Origin: an uncultured Bacilli bacterium
Lineage (GTDB): Bacteria > Bacillota_I > Bacilli_A > RF39 > UBA660
Length of the DNA stretch: 64,000 nucleotides
Reading direction: 5' to 3'
Assembly (NCBI GenBank): GCA_934086145.1
Contig: CAKOHV010000004.1
Coordinates: forward strand, 2,354-66,353
Within the stretch, counting starts at the first letter, position 1. The number at the start of each line of letters is the position of its first letter. This document shows, piece by piece, positions 54,197 through 64,000 of this stretch. The position numbers and the translations under genes are program-made. Below the pieces are notes generated by a model. The model was not told the origin of the DNA, did no database searches, and was given only the letters and a program-made list of their open reading frames with translations.

Positions 54197-54991
54197 CTAA
54201 ACATTCCTTATCTTATAATCCAATACTTTGCAATTGTCATCTAACATAAATTTGCCTTCAAACACGTAATCTTTAAATAAATATGGCGTAAATTTTTGAT
54301 TTTGATCAAATTGCTTAATATTTGGCAAATCATCTAAGTTAATCCATTCCAAAGTTCCTTCAGGAGAAAAAGAAGTCAATTTCCCTTCAAACTCATTAGC
54401 TACATAAACAAATATTATTCCTTCATTAGAATCTTTCCAATAAGATATCCCTTGAAGTTTAGGATTAACTAGAGTAAGTCCCGTTTCTTCATAATATTCT
54501 CTAATTATACAATCTAGTGGACTTTCCCCTGTTTCAAACTTTCCTCCTGGTGGAGCGTACACTTTCCCCCATTTTTTAGTGAACTTAATCATTAAAACTT
54601 TATTATCTTTTTTCAAATAACAAGCAGTCGCATTATAATGGGCAATTCTATGTTTCTTTATTGCAAAAGCAACCCAATTTTCGTTACTTTCCTCATCTCC
54701 ATGATTTTCAGTATGCCCAAAATCGTGTATAACATCATCAACACTACTATATTTATTCTGAAAATCATCCTCATAGTATTTCACATAACAATCATGCAAG
54801 TTATTAAAAATTTCAATATTTTTAACATCAACAACAAATTCATCATCTAAATTAGGCAATTTTAGAAATCTAATAATATCTCCAATTCTAACTTGCTTTC
54901 TTTTTTCATCATTAAAAAAATATACTCTTTTTCTTCGACCAGACTTTAAATCATTAAAATCTTCTTCTGTCAAATTCATTACGTGCTCCAT
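54197..54991 (-). CDS. ASCH-like domain fused to NUDIX hydrolase
   Basis: RBS GGGGGA. Exact Nudix box GKFETGESPLDCIIREYYEETGL (G-x5-E-x7-REUxEExGU). The N-terminal ~90 aa (DLKSGRRKRVYFFNDEKRKQVRIGDIIRF) is ASCH/PUA-like by eye. Confidence 0.75.
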   Translation of the reverse strand: MEHVMNLTEEDFNDLKSGRRKRVYFFNDEKRKQVRIGDIIRFLKLPNLDDEFVVDVKNIEIFNNLHDCYVKYYEDDFQNKYSSVDDVIHDFGHTENHGDEESNENWVAFAIKKHRIAHYNATACYLKKDNKVLMIKFTKKWGKVYAPPGGKFETGESPLDCIIREYYEETGLTLVNPKLQGISYWKDSNEGIIFVYVANEFEGKLTSFSPEGTLEWINLDDLPNIKQFDQNQKFTPYLFKDYVFEGKFMLDDNCKVLDYKIRNV

Positions 54992-55137: not shown

Positions 55138-57096
55138 TTATTTTAAATCGTATCGTTGTTTAAAAACTTCAATATATTTTCTTCTCATCACTGACAATAA
55201 TTGTGAAGCAACCTCGCAAGAAGATTCATTTAAAGTTAACAAAGTAGTATCTAATAAGATCATATCTCCCACACTTATATTAAATAATTCTTTTAATGCT
55301 TCAAGACATCTATTATATTCCTCTAAATTTTCAATATTTAAAAATTTTCTCTTTTCTAAAGCTAAACTTGAAAGGTAATCTCTTTTTAATGAAGTCAAAG
55401 GATCGGCATATGTTATAACTAAAAAATCGATTAAATCTTTAGACAACAAACGATATTCTTCTTTCAAATCTTGATATTGCTCATCATCCATATCTCCTCG
55501 AGCATACAAACGATAATTCCATATCTGTCTGTCATTTATGGAACGGTCAATCAATATAATTTCTTTATCAGAGCTAATAGCATTTTTTAACTGTTTCGTA
55601 ATTTCTTCGATAATAGCAACATTAAGGTCAACAGAATTTGCACCTTTATATTGTTCCTTAAATTCTTCTTTATAATATTTAGATGTAGTAAATTCATCAA
55701 CTATCGTTGTTTTAAAGCCACCTTTTTTTAAGAAATCATTTAAATTATTTATTATAGTAGTTTTCCCTGTTCTAGGTGTTCCACTAAACTCAATAACAAA
55801 AGGTTTTGATAATTTAACTAAGTTTTTCAATTTTTGTAATTCACTTTTTTGCGCATGAAGCCTTTTTAACGTTTCATAATATTTCTCATTATCCACAAAA
55901 ATAGTATTTTTCAAATACAAATCTTCTTTAGCATTAAAAACTACATCTAAAACATTTCTTAGTCTTTTAAAAATAGGAAGTTCTTCATCTTCATAAGCAA
56001 CTAAACTTTCATAGACACTTGTATAATACCACTTTTGTTGTTCTTCACCTCTTTTAAATGGTGAAAAATCTCTTTGACCACTTTTTTGAAATTTAATCAT
56101 TAAATCTTCAAGGTTATCTATTTTATCTGCACAAATAATCACCTTATTTCTTAATGATAATTTTTTTGTTTCACTAATAGTATGTTGCTTTCTCTCTTCC
56201 CAAGACAATGACTTATCAGGTTCAGAAGCTCCCTTAACTAAGTGCGCAACATCTTCTCCAAATTCTTCTTTTATATCATCAAAAGTATATTTGGTGTCTT
56301 CGATAACATCATGTAAATAACCAGCTACCACTACATTATCATCATAACCATACTCTTCTAATACCTTGCCCACACTAAATGGATGCATAATCATTGGTTT
56401 ATCTGGCTCCCCTTTTCTAATTTGTCCCCAATGAGCATTTATTACAAACAGTTTGGCTTTTTCTTTTAAATTCACAATGTGATTTACCTCCATGTATTTC
56501 TTAACAAAAGCCCACTTATCTTTTAAAATAGTATCAATATCTTTCTTAAACTGTTGATATTCTTCATCATAACAATAATGCTTAGCGTATCCACCTTTTC
56601 CATACTTTTCAAGTAAATGATTATAACAGCGTTTAATCATTTGAATCAAATCAAAATCTGGATAATGTTTTAAACTATAAGCATGAGTTCTTTTCAAGAC
56701 CATTTCAATACTAGTGGTTCTATCTGCTGAAGAAATAATTTTACCATAAGTACTTCTTGGTTCATATTCTAATGATGCACGATGATCCTCTATTGCTTCT
56801 TTGATAATTTTTCTTTGTTCATCATCAAAGAAATCTTTCATTTTGTTATTTTCATAAAACATCTTTGCTGACAACACTTCATGATTATCTTTATCTATAT
56901 AATGGGCAATATCATGAAATGATGCAATAGCATATACCATGTCAAGATTTATATCAGGAAACTGTTCAGCAAACTTCAAACTTCTTGTAACAACATACTG
57001 AATATGTTCTATTCCATGACCCGCATCATTCTTTTCATACACCGGTAATATTTCTTGTTCAATGTACTCTTTTAATTTTTTATTAATCCTTTTCAT
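55138..57096 (-). CDS. Triple-domain protein: HD phosphohydrolase + RelA/SpoT-type (p)ppGpp-hydrolase HD domain + P-loop kinase/NTPase-like domain
   Basis: RBS GGTGGTG. Domain 1: GHGIEHIQ...ASFHDIAHY. Domain 2: AHWGQIRKGEPDKPMIMHPFSVGKVLEE...AGYLHDVIEDT...ADKIDNL. Domain 3: Walker A FSGTPRTGKTT and Walker B-like EIILIDRS. No alarmone synthetase domain is present. Confidence 0.7.
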   Translation of the reverse strand: MKRINKKLKEYIEQEILPVYEKNDAGHGIEHIQYVVTRSLKFAEQFPDINLDMVYAIASFHDIAHYIDKDNHEVLSAKMFYENNKMKDFFDDEQRKIIKEAIEDHRASLEYEPRSTYGKIISSADRTTSIEMVLKRTHAYSLKHYPDFDLIQMIKRCYNHLLEKYGKGGYAKHYCYDEEYQQFKKDIDTILKDKWAFVKKYMEVNHIVNLKEKAKLFVINAHWGQIRKGEPDKPMIMHPFSVGKVLEEYGYDDNVVVAGYLHDVIEDTKYTFDDIKEEFGEDVAHLVKGASEPDKSLSWEERKQHTISETKKLSLRNKVIICADKIDNLEDLMIKFQKSGQRDFSPFKRGEEQQKWYYTSVYESLVAYEDEELPIFKRLRNVLDVVFNAKEDLYLKNTIFVDNEKYYETLKRLHAQKSELQKLKNLVKLSKPFVIEFSGTPRTGKTTIINNLNDFLKKGGFKTTIVDEFTTSKYYKEEFKEQYKGANSVDLNVAIIEEITKQLKNAISSDKEIILIDRSINDRQIWNYRLYARGDMDDEQYQDLKEEYRLLSKDLIDFLVITYADPLTSLKRDYLSSLALEKRKFLNIENLEEYNRCLEALKELFNISVGDMILLDTTLLTLNESSCEVASQLLSVMRRKYIEVFKQRYDLK

Positions 57097-57362: not shown

Positions 57363-59747
57363 TTACCAAGAGCTACCTCCGCCGCCACCAGAGCCACCGC
57401 CAGAGAATCCTCCTCCTGAAGAACCTCCACCACTAGAACTACTAGACGGACTAGAAGACATTGCACTTTGTGCTGATGACATTGTCGAATCCATAAAATT
57501 ACCAAATGAAACAACATCAAAAGCATTATTACTATCATACCAGCTTGGTGCTTGTAAAGCTATTGACTCAAATTTTTTAATCCATTTATCAGATACTCCT
57601 AAAACATAGGTAAAGGGAAGAATATCATAAAAATATGTTGGATTTTCCATTACCATTGCTTCTAGTTTTTCTTTTTCAGCTGTTTCTAAGAAATTTTTAA
57701 ATCCTCTTAATTTACCTAACACTTCATTTCCATACTTTGTTCTTTTAGGCATCAACTTAAGGAAAACAATCATTCCTATTAAACATAATAGACCTACAAT
57801 AACTCCTATTAAATATATTCGTTCATTAAGTATTGCTTTAGTAATTGGTAACGTCCTAAAGAACATTGAAGAATGAAATGCCGTAAACCCTAACCAAACA
57901 ATTCTAAAAAGAATAGGCATTCCCGGGAAAAATATTCCAATCCCAAAGAATAATGCATAGAAAGCACATAGAAACAACGTACTTCCAACTTCTCCCATTC
58001 CTCCATAATCGATAGTCGGAATACTAACCACGATTATAAGTGAGATAACCATTAACAATCCTACTAAGACAGATGGCCAAAAAGTACTTCCTTCAAAAAT
58101 TTTCTTTTTGTTTAATTTGTCATTCATATTTTCTAATATTCTATTCATTGTAATGTAAAAGTTATCATACAAATCCATTGAAGTAACAGAAACAGTATTA
58201 AAATTATCTGACATCTCTGATCCTGATTCTGAATAATCAGTTTTTCCTTCACTATCTTTAGTTTGTGTTACTATTTTTTTAAACACATCAAGAGGCCTTA
58301 TATGTGCCCTTGAAAATAACCCATTTAGAAATAATTGTTCATTAACGTTATTTCCATCATATTCTTTTAGTTTTGTTATACAAAAATTCTTAAATTTAAA
58401 GGCTAAAACCTTTTCTTCCAGTTCAGAAATTTTTATATACCCTTTATTAGCTAAATATACCATAAGTGATGTAACATCTCGATTATCAGCTTTTCCTTTA
58501 TATAAAAAGCCTACTTCTAAACTATTAAAGCCTTCAGGTGGATAAAATTCAACTGTTTCAACTACTTGATCATCACGACCAAATATCCACCATAAAATAA
58601 AGGCAATTAATAAACCTAGGATTGGTACGATAAACATTACATAAACTGATGGTCCTATCTTAAATCCAGCCCCTACAAAGTATCCTTCTGGTAATTCACA
58701 TCTAATAGTTAAGGCTTCTTCTTCATCAAGAATTCCTTTATAACTACCAGTTATTGTCTTTTCACTAACTTGATAATCTATTTTACTATTATCCGTTGAA
58801 CCAGTCGTCCCTGATGAAAAACCTAACTTACTTGAATCAAATTCTTTCGGCATAGTAATCGTAAAAGTTACATTACCTATTGCTGTATCCCATTTATCCC
58901 CAATTATATTGTAATATAATTCATCATAATCTTTTACGGGATCTTTTCCAATATTATAAGTATACTTTATTATATATTTTTGTTCACCAGTCAAGGTTTT
59001 ATCAGCTGATCCAATTTTTAAATTATAGTTACCATCTTCTTTAGTTGTTGTATAATCTGTATTAACATTAACATTAGTAATTTGTACACGATTAGATGAT
59101 TTTGACCCATCTAATCTAGTAATATCATTTTTTAATGGAATACTTCTAATTATTCCATGTTTTGCTTTATTAAAATAAGCCGTAATTGTTTCCGTTACAT
59201 CAAAAGTATTATTTTCATTAACTATTATCTTTATATCATAACTATCAATAACATAATCATAAGAACTATATTCACTATTTTTACTAGGAGTTAAACTTGC
59301 TACATCTTCTTTAACTATCATATTATCATTAATATTAATAACTAAATTATAGTAAGCAATCTCACTAACATTATGTTCTCCTAAAATACTTAGATTAGAC
59401 ATTTGACTAAATTCATTAATTCCTGCTAGAGCTTTCCCTGGCTTAACACTTTGAGCTACTAAGTTATAGTTATAATCATAATAATATATTGTTGCATCAT
59501 AATATATCGGTGTCCCAAAATCATTTTTTATCATTCCACTTAGACCGAAAGACTGTGTTGAAGTAGTTGAATAATCTCTGAAAGTAAGTTCAAAGAAATT
59601 TATTTTTTCTATTTCTAAGTTTTTAGTGTTACTGATATTTACATAAGAAGTTTCACCATTTAAAGCACAAGCATTTAATGGAAATATAAAAACTAAAGAT
59701 AGAACAATTGCCATAAATAAGGATAGTTCCTTAATAATTTTTTTCAT
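57363..59747 (-). CDS. DUF2207-family membrane protein with Gly/Ser-rich C-terminal tail
   Basis: Signal peptide, large extracytoplasmic N-terminal region, several TM segments and the C-terminal tail SSSSSGGGSSGGGFSGGGSGGGGGSSW, typical of DUF2207. ATG 59747 with RBS GGAGGA. Confidence 0.8.
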   Translation of the reverse strand: MKKIIKELSLFMAIVLSLVFIFPLNACALNGETSYVNISNTKNLEIEKINFFELTFRDYSTTSTQSFGLSGMIKNDFGTPIYYDATIYYYDYNYNLVAQSVKPGKALAGINEFSQMSNLSILGEHNVSEIAYYNLVININDNMIVKEDVASLTPSKNSEYSSYDYVIDSYDIKIIVNENNTFDVTETITAYFNKAKHGIIRSIPLKNDITRLDGSKSSNRVQITNVNVNTDYTTTKEDGNYNLKIGSADKTLTGEQKYIIKYTYNIGKDPVKDYDELYYNIIGDKWDTAIGNVTFTITMPKEFDSSKLGFSSGTTGSTDNSKIDYQVSEKTITGSYKGILDEEEALTIRCELPEGYFVGAGFKIGPSVYVMFIVPILGLLIAFILWWIFGRDDQVVETVEFYPPEGFNSLEVGFLYKGKADNRDVTSLMVYLANKGYIKISELEEKVLAFKFKNFCITKLKEYDGNNVNEQLFLNGLFSRAHIRPLDVFKKIVTQTKDSEGKTDYSESGSEMSDNFNTVSVTSMDLYDNFYITMNRILENMNDKLNKKKIFEGSTFWPSVLVGLLMVISLIIVVSIPTIDYGGMGEVGSTLFLCAFYALFFGIGIFFPGMPILFRIVWLGFTAFHSSMFFRTLPITKAILNERIYLIGVIVGLLCLIGMIVFLKLMPKRTKYGNEVLGKLRGFKNFLETAEKEKLEAMVMENPTYFYDILPFTYVLGVSDKWIKKFESIALQAPSWYDSNNAFDVVSFGNFMDSTMSSAQSAMSSSPSSSSSGGGSSGGGFSGGGSGGGGGSSW

Positions 59748-59761
59748 GTATCCTCCATAAA

Positions 59762-60310
59762 TCATAGTTCAATTTTGACATTTTCTTTTTCATTAGTACT
59801 TGCTTCAAACATTGCCTTGGCTTTATAGCCAAATAAGCCTGCAAAAATATTACTTGGAAACATTTCTATTTTGTTATTGTATTGTCTAACAACACCATTA
59901 TAATATTTTCTTGAATTAGCAATATCATCTTCAATTTTAGTTAATTTGTTACTTAAATCTTTAAAGTTTTCATTGGCTTTTAACTCCGGATAAGCCTCGG
60001 CTAAAGCCATAATTTTATTAACACTACGGAATACTTGTTCATTTGTTTTGATTTTTTCATCATCTGACATTTGATCATAAGTACTATTTCTTAAATTAAC
60101 CAGATCCTTTAAAGCATCTTTTTCATACTTTGAATATCCTTTTACCGTTTCGACAATGTTTGGAATTAAATCCCATCTTTTCTTTAAATAAACATCCATT
60201 GTTGAAAAGGCTTCTTTGACTTTATTATTTAATTTGACAAAACTATTGTATAAAACTAAAGCATAAATAACAATAAAAATAACTACTGCAATAATAATAT
60301 AAACCCACAT
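59762..60310 (-). CDS. lemA: LemA family protein
   Basis: 182 aa with an N-terminal TM. YNSFVKLNNKVKEAFSTMDVYLKKRWDLIPN...RKYYNGVVRQYNNKIEMFPSNIFAGLFG is the canonical LemA signature. Confidence 0.9.
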   Translation of the reverse strand: MWVYIIIAVVIFIVIYALVLYNSFVKLNNKVKEAFSTMDVYLKKRWDLIPNIVETVKGYSKYEKDALKDLVNLRNSTYDQMSDDEKIKTNEQVFRSVNKIMALAEAYPELKANENFKDLSNKLTKIEDDIANSRKYYNGVVRQYNNKIEMFPSNIFAGLFGYKAKAMFEASTNEKENVKIEL

Positions 60311-60546: not shown

Positions 60547-60831
60547 TTATATAATCTCTTCAATTATTTTTATTTTTTTATTAATAATAGCCAGTTCTTC
60601 TTTTGTAGCAATATAATTTATGTAAATACTAAATAACATTTCTTTAGCTTCATCACTTATATCCTGTTTTAAAATACTTTTAGAATAATCATATTTAAAA
60701 AGATATTTATCTAACTTAGCATTTTTTATTTCATTCATGATATCAGAAGGAATATTTTTTTTCTTATCTTCTGGTAAGACACTAATTATGGCGTTTATTT
60801 GAATTAAGGCTTTTGTTCTTTCATCATTCAT
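60547..60831 (-). CDS. Small (94-aa) hypothetical helical protein coupled to the upstream transglutaminase-like gene
   Basis: The ATG lies 3 nt after the stop of the 60835-62445 gene. K/E/I-rich, with no TM and no recognisable motif. Confidence 0.5.
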   Translation of the reverse strand: MNDERTKALIQINAIISVLPEDKKKNIPSDIMNEIKNAKLDKYLFKYDYSKSILKQDISDEAKEMLFSIYINYIATKEELAIINKKIKIIEEII

Positions 60832-60834
60832 TTT

Positions 60835-62445
60835 TTATTTTCCTTTCTTACCTAATAATAAACTATTTATTTGGTCATTTTTTTCTTTATTTTTTAATAA
60901 AAAGGCTAATAACTGTCTATTATTTGAAGCAAAAGCAACTAAATCTTTAAATAATGATTCTGATATTTCTGAAGAATTTAAATCAACATTTGCCCAATCC
61001 GTAACTTTAGACCAATCGGTAGCTAATAAATTTAATTGTTGAACCAACGTTATACTATCGCCTAATTCAATATTTTCTTCTATTTTATGGTGCTTCAATT
61101 TATCGAATTTTCTTGTTCCATCAGGTTCCTTACCAGCCAAAAAGGTGTCTATTCCCATTATATCTGATACTGCCAATTCATCTCTATACCAAGTAAAATC
61201 ATCTTCATACCATGTATTATCTAAATTTAAATAATTCCAAGCATGTTCTTGATCGACTGCAATGATTGATTTAGATTGAATTCCAAAGTAAAGGGTTAAC
61301 GTATTTATAATAGTTGAAAAGCCTTTACATACTGTTGCCCCAACTAAAAGTCCTTTCATATTTTGCGATGCAGCTATCCTTTCATATGATTTAGTATCAT
61401 AAAAATCAATTTTATCTTTATTATTCATCAAGTTCAACGCATCATAATCATACTTTATATATTCAAACAGATTATTAACTATTTGTGCATAAATTATTTT
61501 TTCTCGATTTTTCAATTCTTTAGGAGGAATAACAACTTTATTTACTATTTCTAAAATGATTTCTTTAATAGCAATAATTTCTTCTTTATTATACATGTAA
61601 CCATTTTTTCTTCCAGCCTGATTAACATATTCATAACCTTCAAATTTTAAATAGTCAGTCCCTAAAAAAACTCTTTCACCATCTAACAAATATTCTGGAT
61701 TTACCTGAAAAATTGTATCATATAAATATACTCCATTCTCGTATATATACCCATCAGGATTATCGATATCTAAAAGTTCTCCAGTTTGTAATATTCTTAA
61801 ATCATTAGCATTTGCATCAATTATTTCAAAATACATTTTTTTATTACGACGCGAAATAATTTTCCAAGCATTACTACCATCACATCTTGCCACTAGAAAC
61901 ACCATGTTTGTCTTATCACTTTTTAAAATTATTCCACTTGGTAATACAATCTGTTCAATATTGTTACTAAAAGTCAATTTTTTTATCTTGCTATTCAAAG
62001 GAACAATTATTCTTTTTATCACATTATATTCATCTATTTTCAGTTCTTCAATTTTAGGCGGAATAACAAATTCTTCCGTAAATAACATACACCCTGTACA
62101 ATCCATCTCACTAACTTGAGTATTCTTTCCAAATCTTACTTCATATAACCGATCGCCAAAAGCATGACCATCAATTTTCTCTACTGAATCTGGTATTAAA
62201 ATCTCATTTGTTATTCTTATTCCCATAATTGAACCAAATTCTATTCTTTTTAATTTACTTCCCTCTTCAAATCTTAAAGTAAAAGTCGTTCGATCAAAAA
62301 ATCCTTCTTCAAAATCATTTTCTAAATAAAAGCTATTAAAAGCAAGGGTTTTAATTACTTCTGCTTCCTTAGGAATGACTATATCTGTTCCATAATTTTT
62401 TATATAATTAATTACCCAATCCTTCGTTATATTCAAAATAATCAC
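60835..62445 (-). CDS. BspA-type LRR-like N-terminal region + transglutaminase-like (Cys-His-Asp) domain protein
   Basis: Cys in GATVCKGFSTIINTL, His in QEHAWNYL and Asp in WYEDDFTW. The N-terminal ~180 aa has repeated IP..V..I....F units. No signal peptide was seen. The start codon is uncertain (GTG 62445 abuts GGAG; TTG 62436 is an alternative). Confidence 0.6.
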   Translation of the reverse strand: MIILNITKDWVINYIKNYGTDIVIPKEAEVIKTLAFNSFYLENDFEEGFFDRTTFTLRFEEGSKLKRIEFGSIMGIRITNEILIPDSVEKIDGHAFGDRLYEVRFGKNTQVSEMDCTGCMLFTEEFVIPPKIEELKIDEYNVIKRIIVPLNSKIKKLTFSNNIEQIVLPSGIILKSDKTNMVFLVARCDGSNAWKIISRRNKKMYFEIIDANANDLRILQTGELLDIDNPDGYIYENGVYLYDTIFQVNPEYLLDGERVFLGTDYLKFEGYEYVNQAGRKNGYMYNKEEIIAIKEIILEIVNKVVIPPKELKNREKIIYAQIVNNLFEYIKYDYDALNLMNNKDKIDFYDTKSYERIAASQNMKGLLVGATVCKGFSTIINTLTLYFGIQSKSIIAVDQEHAWNYLNLDNTWYEDDFTWYRDELAVSDIMGIDTFLAGKEPDGTRKFDKLKHHKIEENIELGDSITLVQQLNLLATDWSKVTDWANVDLNSSEISESLFKDLVAFASNNRQLLAFLLKNKEKNDQINSLLLGKKGK

Positions 62446-62666
62446 TCCGTTTTCCCTAAATATATTGGTATTCTAGCATAAATTCTAACAATGACCAAAT
62501 ATACCTTCCAAATTTTCTGCTTTGTATTTCATAAATGCAAAAAAGCCTACACCTTATGTAAGCCTACTAAATGTTTAACAAGGAAAATAACCCAAACAAT
62601 GATTTTATTCCTATTTTGTACCTTAAATTTTCCCCCAAAAAGTCTTATAGTGCTAATACTTTTTTA

Positions 62667-62891
62667 CTATTTCATTTTTTCTGAATCAATCAATTCTAAA
62701 TAAATACTTTTTAAATCATTTTCTGGAATCTCAAGTTCCCTTAAAAGAGCATACGCTGTTTCAATATTTATCTTAAAAAAGCATTGTTTATCATTTAACA
62801 TTTTTTTAATTAATAAATGTTTTGCTCTCTTTTCTTCATCTAAAGTTTGACTAATTATCTTATCATTAATAACGATTAATTTATCTATCAT
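62667..62891 (-). CDS. Small (74-aa) hypothetical helical protein coupled to the upstream transglutaminase-like gene
   Basis: The start overlaps the upstream stop (ATGA at 62888-62891). No recognisable motif. Confidence 0.5.
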   Translation of the reverse strand: MIDKLIVINDKIISQTLDEEKRAKHLLIKKMLNDKQCFFKINIETAYALLRELEIPENDLKSIYLELIDSEKMK

Positions 62892-64000
62892 TTTTTTCTC
62901 CTATCTTTTATTCCAGGAATTGTCGGATCTTCTACATCAATATACCCCATGGTATCATTATCAAATAAACGTTGTAACTCATCTCTGGCGACTAAAACCA
63001 AATTTAACCCTGGTTCATACCTATATCTATCAATAATCAACTTACCTTTTTCATTTGGATGCTTCAAAGATATAATAGCTAGAGCTTGGGCAGCATTTTC
63101 TAAAGTATTTCTAATAATCGATATTCTTATATTATCATTTTGTTCTCTTCTAGAAAACAAAATTTTTCTTAATTGTAATAAATATGAATATGCATCTATT
63201 CCCACTAATTTTGAAGAATTAACCTTGTCTATTAAAATATCAATTTTTTCTTGAAGACCAACCTTTTCTATCATATCTGTCTTTTGTAAGAACTGAGCTA
63301 CTATGTCATCAAAACTTTCTAAACCATTAATTACATTTTGACTAATTTTTGGTTCTCTTTCTGCAATATATTGATAAACTTTGGCAACTTCAGCATCAAA
63401 CTCTGATCTTGTCTTAGAATTCTTATTTTCACAAACCAAACCCGTCAATTGTTGATTTAACTTCGCTTGCACTATATCACCTTGTAAAATACTAGTTACC
63501 GAATCGGCTTTTACTAAGTATTTCCCACATCGACATTTTAAAAAAGTATGTCCTTCACTATATTGATAATAATCATCATCAAACTCCGCTTCACCATCTT
63601 CACCATTAAATTCCACAACTCCCACAAAGTTCTTATAATTTATTCCTATTTTATGTAAAAGATAAGAATATATGGCATTAAATTCATAACATACAACTTC
63701 ATTATTTTCCAAAGATATACTCGAAATATGATCAATCGTTTTATGTTTTTGAACCAATGGCCCGCTTTGATTAACCGCATAAAATTCTTCATCATAAGTT
63801 AATGTTTTACACATTTTTATATAAATATATATGGCTTTTTCCAAACTATTAAACTCCGGATCAATTCCACTTAATAAAAAATCTTCTAGCTCAACATCAA
63901 CTTGAATTTGTTCCAACATCGAATCACTCGTATCAAGATATTTATTAATCATCTGGACATCAACAATATCCGAAGAAGTTATACTTTTTAAACGGTCTTT
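62888..64000 (-). CDS. Transglutaminase-like (Cys-His-Asp) domain protein, possibly N-terminally truncated by the window edge
   Basis: Cys in EVVCYEFNAIYSYLLHKIGI, His in YSEGHTFLKC and Asp in LVKADSV. The first ATG is at 63952 and has no obvious RBS. The frame stays open to 64000 (KDRLKSITSSDIVDVQM...), so the true start may lie outside the window. Confidence 0.6.
   Translation of the reverse strand, partial: KDRLKSITSSDIVDVQMINKYLDTSDSMLEQIQVDVELEDFLLSGIDPEFNSLEKAIYIYIKMCKTLTYDEEFYAVNQSGPLVQKHKTIDHISSISLENNEVVCYEFNAIYSYLLHKIGINYKNFVGVVEFNGEDGEAEFDDDYYQYSEGHTFLKCRCGKYLVKADSVTSILQGDIVQAKLNQQLTGLVCENKNSKTRSEFDAEVAKVYQYIAEREPKISQNVINGLESFDDIVAQFLQKTDMIEKVGLQEKIDILIDKVNSSKLVGIDAYSYLLQLRKILFSRREQNDNIRISIIRNTLENAAQALAIISLKHPNEKGKLIIDRYRYEPGLNLVLVARDELQRLFDNDTMGYIDVEDPTIPGIKDRRKK

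Follow-up and report, generated by a model that had tools for sequence, protein, structure and literature searches.

Two neighbouring, unrelated gene pairs for Cys-His-Asp enzymes and small partner proteins in an uncultured Bacilli bacterium

What is the role of a gene for a transglutaminase-like enzyme that is directly followed by a gene for a very small protein, and why does this arrangement occur twice in a row? This question is raised by the last part of a stretch of 64,000 nucleotides (nt) from an uncultured Bacilli bacterium (assembly GCA_934086145.1, contig CAKOHV010000004.1, positions 2,354 to 66,353), which we call the window and which is part of contig C4 of the source genome (G000; 1.66 Mb, 29% G+C, 47 contigs). 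We refer to the two pairs as module 1 and module 2. The analysis supports the view that both are autonomous, conserved and translationally coupled cassettes of an enzyme of the Cys-His-Asp superfamily and a small partner.

Our best explanation goes further and is tentative: the modules might be two independent, horizontally mobile two-gene cassettes, each consisting of an enzyme and a small helical protein cognate to it. The enzyme would act in the cytoplasm as a thiol enzyme, with a Cys-His-Asp triad and hence an acyl-enzyme intermediate. The partner, made in step with the enzyme through translational coupling, would bind the enzyme and protect the producing cell from it, in the manner of an immunity protein, an antitoxin or an inhibitor. 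That the cassettes combine an enzyme with a small protein that neutralises it we consider nearly, if not quite, an even bet.

Layout of the two gene pairs

All four open reading frames (ORFs) proposed by the initial annotation, two enzyme genes each with a small partner gene, were found again on the minus strand. The features of the two modules are the following (aa, amino acids; NAT, arylamine N-acetyltransferase; LRR, leucine-rich repeat):

62888..64000 in the window and on to the equivalent of 64639, minus strand: module 1 enzyme gene (ORF list and flanking contig DNA)
63191..63949, minus strand: module 1 catalytic core, residues ~231-483, with a predicted papain/transglutaminase/NAT fold
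63689-63691 (C317), 63548-63550 (H364) and 63503-63505 (D379), minus strand: module 1 catalytic codons (checked in the window)
62667..62891, minus strand: small1, the 74-aa partner of module 1 (ATGA overlap, own Shine-Dalgarno sequence)
62543..62565, minus strand: terminator-like hairpin and T run 3' of module 1 (pattern match only, 1 found versus 0.6 expected)
62470..62511, minus strand: two overlapping promoter-like sites with a TG-extended -10, 5' of module 2 (consensus match only)
60835..62445, minus strand: module 2 enzyme gene, 536 aa as listed (ORF list)
61785..62445, minus strand: module 2 N-terminal BspA-type LRR domain, residues ~1-220
61060..61608, minus strand: module 2 TglA-like transglutaminase core, residues ~280-462
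61327-61329 (C373), 61243-61245 (H401) and 61198-61203 (D415/D416), minus strand: module 2 catalytic codons (checked in the window)
60547..60831, minus strand: small2, the 94-aa partner of module 2 (start 3 nt past the enzyme stop codon)

The module 1 enzyme had been described as a protein of at least 354 aa with Cys, His and Asp in catalytic order. The triad stands, whereas the length has to be revised: with the flanking DNA of contig C4 the enzyme has 583 aa (L001:3242-4993), its start lies 639 nt past the window end, and the C-terminal 370 codons fall inside the window. Upstream of the gene follow a spacer of ~380 nt and a divergent helix-turn-helix (HTH) membrane gene; therefore the operon ends there, and the suggestion that it might continue past 64000 was not upheld. 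The stop codon of the enzyme and the start codon of small1 overlap as ATGA, with AGGAG 8 nt upstream of small1, and small2 does follow its enzyme after a 3-nt spacer. Because of the N-termini of homologues and a GGAG upstream, translation of the module 2 enzyme probably starts at a TTG at 62436, 9 nt downstream of the listed GTG, which would give a protein of 533 aa.

The two modules had been regarded as probably separate transcripts; the 220-bp gap between them contains the pattern matches to a terminator and to promoters. A larger operon was rejected, no third gene being conserved across 84 loci; the flanking genes are varied housekeeping genes. The modules do not form a fixed unit either: no other sampled locus has both, and module 2 occurs in 0 of 26 congeners. 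Pairwise tests found no significant similarity between the two enzymes or between the two small proteins, as had been noted by eye, and a relationship of small1 to small2 was rejected. The possibility that the enzymes are paralogues was likewise dismissed, as BLASTP returned nothing and hhalign paired the Cys region only, at 1% probability. Hence modules 1 and 2 are two neighbouring but unrelated, separate gene pairs. At the sequence level the enzymes seem to be connected through the superfamily only, because a 334-aa protein from the same genome (see below) weakly matches both profiles. In line with the annotated lack of signal peptides and transmembrane segments, a Kyte-Doolittle scan detected no hydrophobic segment in any of the four proteins (maximum 19-residue mean < 1.6).

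Enzyme families and their partners

The family of the module 1 enzyme comprises at least 574 relatives, counted as clusters at 90% identity, all of them unnamed or hypothetical and almost none with a precomputed Pfam domain. Close homologues come from metagenome-assembled genomes labelled Bacilli bacterium or uncultured Clostridia, obtained from animal and human guts. The initial annotation made its case depend on conservation of the catalytic residues, and this was confirmed for both enzymes: C317, H364 and D379 are invariant among 33 homologues of module 1 with 37-62% identity, and C373, H401 and D415/D416 among 22 homologues of module 2. In metagenomic homologues of module 1, Cys and His are present in 75/75 and Asp in 74/75. 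No Pfam or NCBIfam model reached its threshold on either enzyme.

The AlphaFold2 model of the module 1 enzyme (predicted local distance difference test, pLDDT, 90.1; predicted template modelling score, pTM, 0.84) has the core fold of the papain/transglutaminase/NAT superfamily, with the Cys predicted on an N-terminal helix and a sheet carrying His and Asp, and the three residues follow each other in the order typical of that superfamily. Foldseek searches with this model, in which all expect values (E) exceeded 1e-3, listed NATs and the amide synthase GdmF first and then vasohibin, TglA, putative cysteine proteases and Rad4. An unbiased scan of 48,161 chains had only members of the papain/transglutaminase/NAT superfamily in its top 22 rows, and in the viral structure library BFVD the best matches were again NATs. 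NATs, transglutaminase-like proteins and vasohibins are known as branches of one papain-like superfamily (PMC10318531). We place the module 1 enzyme in this superfamily as a new family. The label "transglutaminase-like" proved too narrow for module 1. The module 1 family core would be closest to NATs and TglA-type transglutaminase-like proteins, and it appears at least as close to the former. Acyl transfer rather than proteolysis is therefore possible; more broadly, the enzyme might transfer acyl groups, deamidate or crosslink, or cleave peptides.

The initial annotation asked whether homologues always carry a small downstream gene. A small1 homologue adjoins the module 1 enzyme in 63 of 79 metagenome loci (62 downstream, one upstream), and among 61 related genomes it lies directly downstream of the full-length enzyme in all eight that have this enzyme. 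Of 48 full-length pairs, 19 overlap by 4 nt and 10 are separated by 2 nt, the two commonest spacings. The distance matrices of enzyme and partner are correlated (Mantel r 0.91), with similar mean distances (0.58 for the enzyme, 0.53 for the partner), and a median ratio of nonsynonymous to synonymous substitution rates of 0.20 over 104 non-independent pairs indicates purifying selection on small1. An exhaustive profile search of 1.84 billion representatives found 460 small1 clusters, nearly all of 67-90 aa; these were counted at 50% identity, unlike the enzyme clusters. The invariant positions of small1 are all hydrophobic except Tyr64, as expected of a binding protein rather than an enzyme; a Cys is mostly conserved, and there is no invariant Lys, Gln or Cys. 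Fused forms of enzyme and small1 were sought among longer proteins, and none was seen except one 171-aa oddity. In two loci (L029 and L082) a frameshifted enzyme gene stands beside an intact partner gene. In one metagenome locus (L063:5631-6662) the first ~28 codons of small1 run into a mannose-6-phosphate-isomerase-like ORF, which could be a deletion or an assembly chimera.

Module 2 belongs to a much smaller family with only 33 relatives. The LRR-like repeats that had been recognised in its N-terminal part were verified by profile search and fold as an LRR_5 solenoid (PF13306): the module 2 profile matched six solved BspA-type LRR proteins (best 4gt6, E 6.3e-16). The part behind the repeats is a transglutaminase-like core by profile, fold and Cys-His-Asp residues, with a profile match to TglA (PDB 9crn, E 2.2e-6); the AlphaFold2 model has a pLDDT of 86.4. 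In the proposed mechanism the LRR domain, likely a target-binding surface, would stand ahead of the TglA-like core. small2 adjoins the enzyme in 4/4 informative relatives at ~35% identity, in one of them upstream, and thus the adjacency survives a changed gene order. Its invariant residues, taken from five sequences, include several Lys, Gln, Asp and Tyr.

The two small ORFs are genuine, conserved partners. Neither of them has a match in Pfam, NCBIfam, PADLOC, PDB profile searches or the ESM Atlas, and the view that the family pairing cannot be named holds for Pfam, NCBIfam, PHROGs and PADLOC. The partners appear helical, small1 according to an ESM Atlas model of modest confidence. The distribution of the modules is patchy: among the 61 related genomes module 1 enzyme and small1 occur in this genome, in 6 of the 26 congeners and in one other genus, and small2 and its enzyme in this genome only. 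The module 2 enzyme was not found in any of the 26 congeners or of 150 other genera of the family.

The same genome also encodes a partner-less 334-aa Cys-His-Asp protein directly after nusB (contig C11:11020-11391; L003:1459-2463). It matches both module profiles weakly and Transglut_core below threshold, and it may represent a housekeeping branch of the same superfamily.

A toxin-like arrangement and competing explanations

The strongest hint to the role of module 1 comes from two congeners with divergent small1-like genes that lack a strong enzyme match. In one of them (G024) the gene upstream codes for a divergent enzyme of the module 1 family with 521 aa (profile E 1e-9). In the other (G023) it codes for an 880-aa protein whose residues 83-520 share 57-67% identity with five proteins of 714-1359 aa in the genomes G001 and G012. 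In four of these five the C-terminal part includes an ADP-ribosyltransferase domain that scores above the Pfam cut-off. In G012 the toxin gene has WXG100 genes 5' of it, one of which also exceeds the cut-off, and in G001 two toxin genes are each followed by an ADP-ribosylglycohydrolase gene. WXG100 genes upstream, ADP-ribosyltransferase tips and ADP-ribosylglycohydrolase genes downstream constitute a type VII polymorphic-toxin layout. The C-terminal domain of the 880-aa protein, which takes the place of the ADP-ribosyltransferase, matches the 521-aa enzyme of G024 across Cys, His and Asp (BLASTP 6e-12), and a gene for a 93-aa protein, 12 nt 3' of the 880-aa gene, is a member of the small1 family (hhalign 96.5%, E 7e-10). 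In G023, then, the module 1 domain pair is used as a toxin tip and a gene in the immunity position. Since a sister species uses the module 1 family in this way, the partners are probably neutralising proteins. Toxin domains with a transglutaminase fold and with immunity genes are an established class (PMC3482391).

The loci of the related toxins show further genes. In G001 (L132, C1:119000-130000) the ADP-ribosyltransferase toxin genes stand in tandem, each followed by a 135-aa ORF together with the ADP-ribosylglycohydrolase gene; small helical ORFs lie ahead of them. The G012 toxin gene with its preceding WXG100 genes is found at L135, C1:24000-33000. The source genome itself encodes two EssC-like ORFs on contig C10 (3990-38735) of 1542 and 1563 aa, with two FtsK_SpoIIIE matches each, and four WXG100-like genes (107-112 aa) just below the Pfam cut-off, three near the EssC-like ORFs and one on contig C7. 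It probably has type VII secretion loci; the scaffold of the G023 protein has no match in it.

The initial annotation compared the layout to protease/inhibitor or effector/immunity pairs. With moderate confidence we regard effector/immunity or enzyme/inhibitor as the best supported reading for module 1 and as a plausible one for module 2. For module 1 the support appears real but indirect, through the small1-family gene behind the polymorphic-toxin-like protein of G023, and its downstream cognate gene co-varies with the enzyme. For module 2, where the gene order is swapped once, the evidence seems to consist of conserved adjacency. We infer that partner and enzyme bind physically, that the enzyme is inhibited and would otherwise be toxic, and we likewise infer its substrates and the reason for the free-standing form. 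A more specific version seems rather unlikely to us: module 1 would be a new toxin/immunity family (Acetyltransf_2-like, not GNAT) that acylates or deamidates an essential target, is neutralised by the ~70-aa helical protein, and is used both as a type VII warhead and as a free-standing intracellular cassette, with module 2 as an LRR-gated TglA-like enzyme.

Several observations, besides the weaker evidence for module 2, speak against neutralisation. Domain scans and hydropathy found no trafficking domain, LXG or WXG region or signal peptide in the window enzymes, and there is no WXG100 gene near the modules; a shared N-terminal trafficking region is found in the 880-aa protein of G023, a type of fusion seen once among the 61 genomes. 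Shorter relatives without a partner are found among housekeeping genes, such as the one after nusB in this genome, and about ten homologues without small1 retain Cys, His and Asp. Orphan or arrayed copies, which are common for immunity genes, were not found for the small genes in this genome or in the surveyed loci. Finally, none of the four proteins matched a PADLOC model, and in PHROGs the only match among the four, that of the module 1 enzyme to a family without known function, stayed below threshold (E 0.009).

Some of these observations would suit the main rival, an obligate two-subunit enzyme in which the small protein is a chaperone, an activator or a substrate adaptor required for folding or activity, as SVBP is for the tubulin carboxypeptidase vasohibin. 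The modules would then be ordinary cytoplasmic enzymes that modify proteins or metabolites, with no part in any conflict. Translational coupling would provide expression in step, enzyme and partner diverge alike, and the housekeeping contexts, the missing trafficking domain and the missing orphan copies all fit. However, homologues with intact triads that stand alone need no partner, and the partner family is found in the immunity position of a polymorphic-toxin-like protein, whereas chaperones are normally encoded upstream of polymorphic toxins. Vasohibin (VASH) ranks behind NATs and GdmF in the structural matches, and a patchy, strain-variable distribution would be unusual for a housekeeping holoenzyme. 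We consider an activating or otherwise required subunit unlikely, yet worth serious attention.

Could the pairs instead act inside the cell, as toxin-antitoxin or anti-phage abortive infection modules? Here the enzyme would be a latent toxin, set free once a labile partner disappears or a phage protein is recognised by the LRR or N-terminal domain. The autonomous two-gene form, the patchy distribution and the variable insertion sites are compatible with this, the module 2 LRR domain could plausibly act as a sensor, and the two loci with a frameshifted enzyme and an intact partner fit as well. Moreover, the same pair of domains is also used by a polymorphic toxin, as is the case for many toxin domains of toxin-antitoxin systems. 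Against it stand the lack of matches to PADLOC and PHROGs models, searches of viral contigs that found neither enzyme, a neighbourhood that is not a recognisable defence island, the adjacency of the modules in this genome only among those sampled, and the persistence of solo enzymes. Regarding type II toxin-antitoxin systems, neither small protein matches a Pfam, NCBIfam, PADLOC or PDB entry, with which a novel DNA-binding fold would still be compatible. Altogether an intracellular conflict module appears quite improbable.

Even less probable is that the small protein serves as a dedicated substrate or carrier that is cleaved, acylated, crosslinked or deamidated to an active product. The genes of an enzyme and its dedicated substrate frequently lie side by side and are coupled, and the invariant Lys, Gln, Asp and Tyr of small2, as well as Tyr64 and the mostly conserved Cys of small1, might be modified. 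However, small1 offers no invariant Lys, Gln or Cys, it shows neither a leader/core organisation nor a Gly-Gly-type site, its vicinity contains no export gene, and the polymorphic-toxin context fits immunity better. A phage origin was rejected, as searches of IMG/VR viral contigs returned neither of the enzyme families and PHROGs matched below threshold only, and so was a known defence system, given the lack of PADLOC matches.

Genomic surroundings and known systems

Directly 3' of module 2 (57363-60310, minus strand) a LemA gene (182 aa) overlaps the gene of a DUF2207 membrane protein (800 aa, Gly/Ser-rich tail); this looks like an ordinary pair that is not part of the modules. At 55138-57096 (minus strand) a 652-aa protein is encoded that combines an HD domain, a RelA/SpoT-type HD_4 domain (ppGpp-hydrolase-like) and an AAA_28/deoxynucleoside-kinase-like domain, and a NUDIX gene (54197-54991) lies just upstream of it. 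The gene of a short HD_4 protein immediately precedes divergent module 1-family enzymes in G024 and G002; in G024 a 164-aa ORF precedes the enzyme as well. The neighbourhood of HD_4 proteins and enzymes may reflect conserved synteny or a link to nucleotide signalling. Past the window, on the same contig, follow a 360-aa protein with weak ImmA/IrrE-type (Peptidase_M78) and DUF6782 matches (L001:8878-9960, minus strand), several unannotated ORFs nearby and a pair of IS3-type transposase genes at the contig end (L001:13118-14439). Beyond module 1 the contig may form a variable island.

The enzyme and partner families of module 1 are widespread in uncultured gut Bacilli and have no Pfam, NCBIfam, PHROGs or PADLOC model among the libraries searched; profile searches found no solved relative of either. 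The polymorphic-toxin link gives these two large families of unknown proteins a concrete and testable function, that of a thiol-enzyme toxin and its immunity protein. If this is true, they would be a new type of warhead in interbacterial competition in the gut, and if the core acts like a NAT, the chemistry would be unfamiliar for a bacterial toxin. If the partners activate instead, the pairs would be bacterial counterparts of vasohibin-SVBP. Either way they are compact and easily expressed systems.

How do the modules compare with known systems? NATs and NAT-family amide synthases (PF00797, Acetyltransf_2; 4nv7, 1e2t, GdmF 8btm) share with module 1 the order Cys-His-Asp, the 15 residues from His to Asp and the cytoplasmic location; they are its best Foldseek matches in the PDB and BFVD, and the motif around the Cys reads C-Y-E-F-N in module 1 and C-Y-E-L-N in a Bacilli NAT. 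At the sequence level no match to PF00797 or to solved NATs was obtained: PF00797 has no match at E<=1 in the genome and none in the Pfam scan of the module 1 protein, and the module 1 profile hit no PDB chain at E<=10. An hhalign comparison with a Bacilli NAT gave a probability of 15.6% (E 1.7e-3) over 29 columns only, a weak test with only two NATs in 600 genomes. Unlike NATs, module 1 has an extra 230-residue N-terminal domain and a dedicated small partner. TglA of Streptococcus pyogenes and Transglut_core (PF01841) differ from the window proteins as well, neither of which reaches the PF01841 threshold, and module 2 adds the LRR domain and a small partner. We found no published paper on the function of TglA, and the match to it is one of fold, not of function.

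In polymorphic-toxin systems, among them those with Tox-transglutaminase and other papain-fold toxin domains (Zhang et al. 2012, PMC3482391; the WXG100/LXG type VII systems of Firmicutes) the toxin tip is followed by an immunity gene. This defining layout is that of G023, with a module 1-family C-terminal domain on a WXG100-associated ADP-ribosyltransferase scaffold and a small1-family gene next to it. The window enzymes are different: they lack a trafficking region, no WXG100 or EssC gene is close to them, the enzyme and partner families are unnamed, and arrays of orphan cassettes or immunity genes were not seen. Vasohibin-SVBP (6j4s, 6wsl) also pairs a transglutaminase-like protease with a 66-aa helical partner. 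However, it is eukaryotic, its triad is Cys-His-Ser (PMC10318531), and SVBP activates rather than neutralises, in contrast to the partners proposed here; neither small1 nor small2 has sequence similarity to any solved chain.

The arrangement of the genes recalls that of staphopain and staphostatin or of SpeB and Spi, in which a papain-fold thiol protease is encoded directly upstream of its small cytoplasmic inhibitor. Staphopain and SpeB are secreted as zymogens, with inhibitors of a beta-barrel or prodomain-like type, whereas in the window pairs no signal peptide was found and the partners appear helical and unrelated. In conclusion, a papain-fold toxin or enzyme with a small neutralising protein is a known kind of system. 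What is new in the present pairs is the two enzyme families and the two families of partners, together with the NAT-like core and the cytoplasmic form that stands free.

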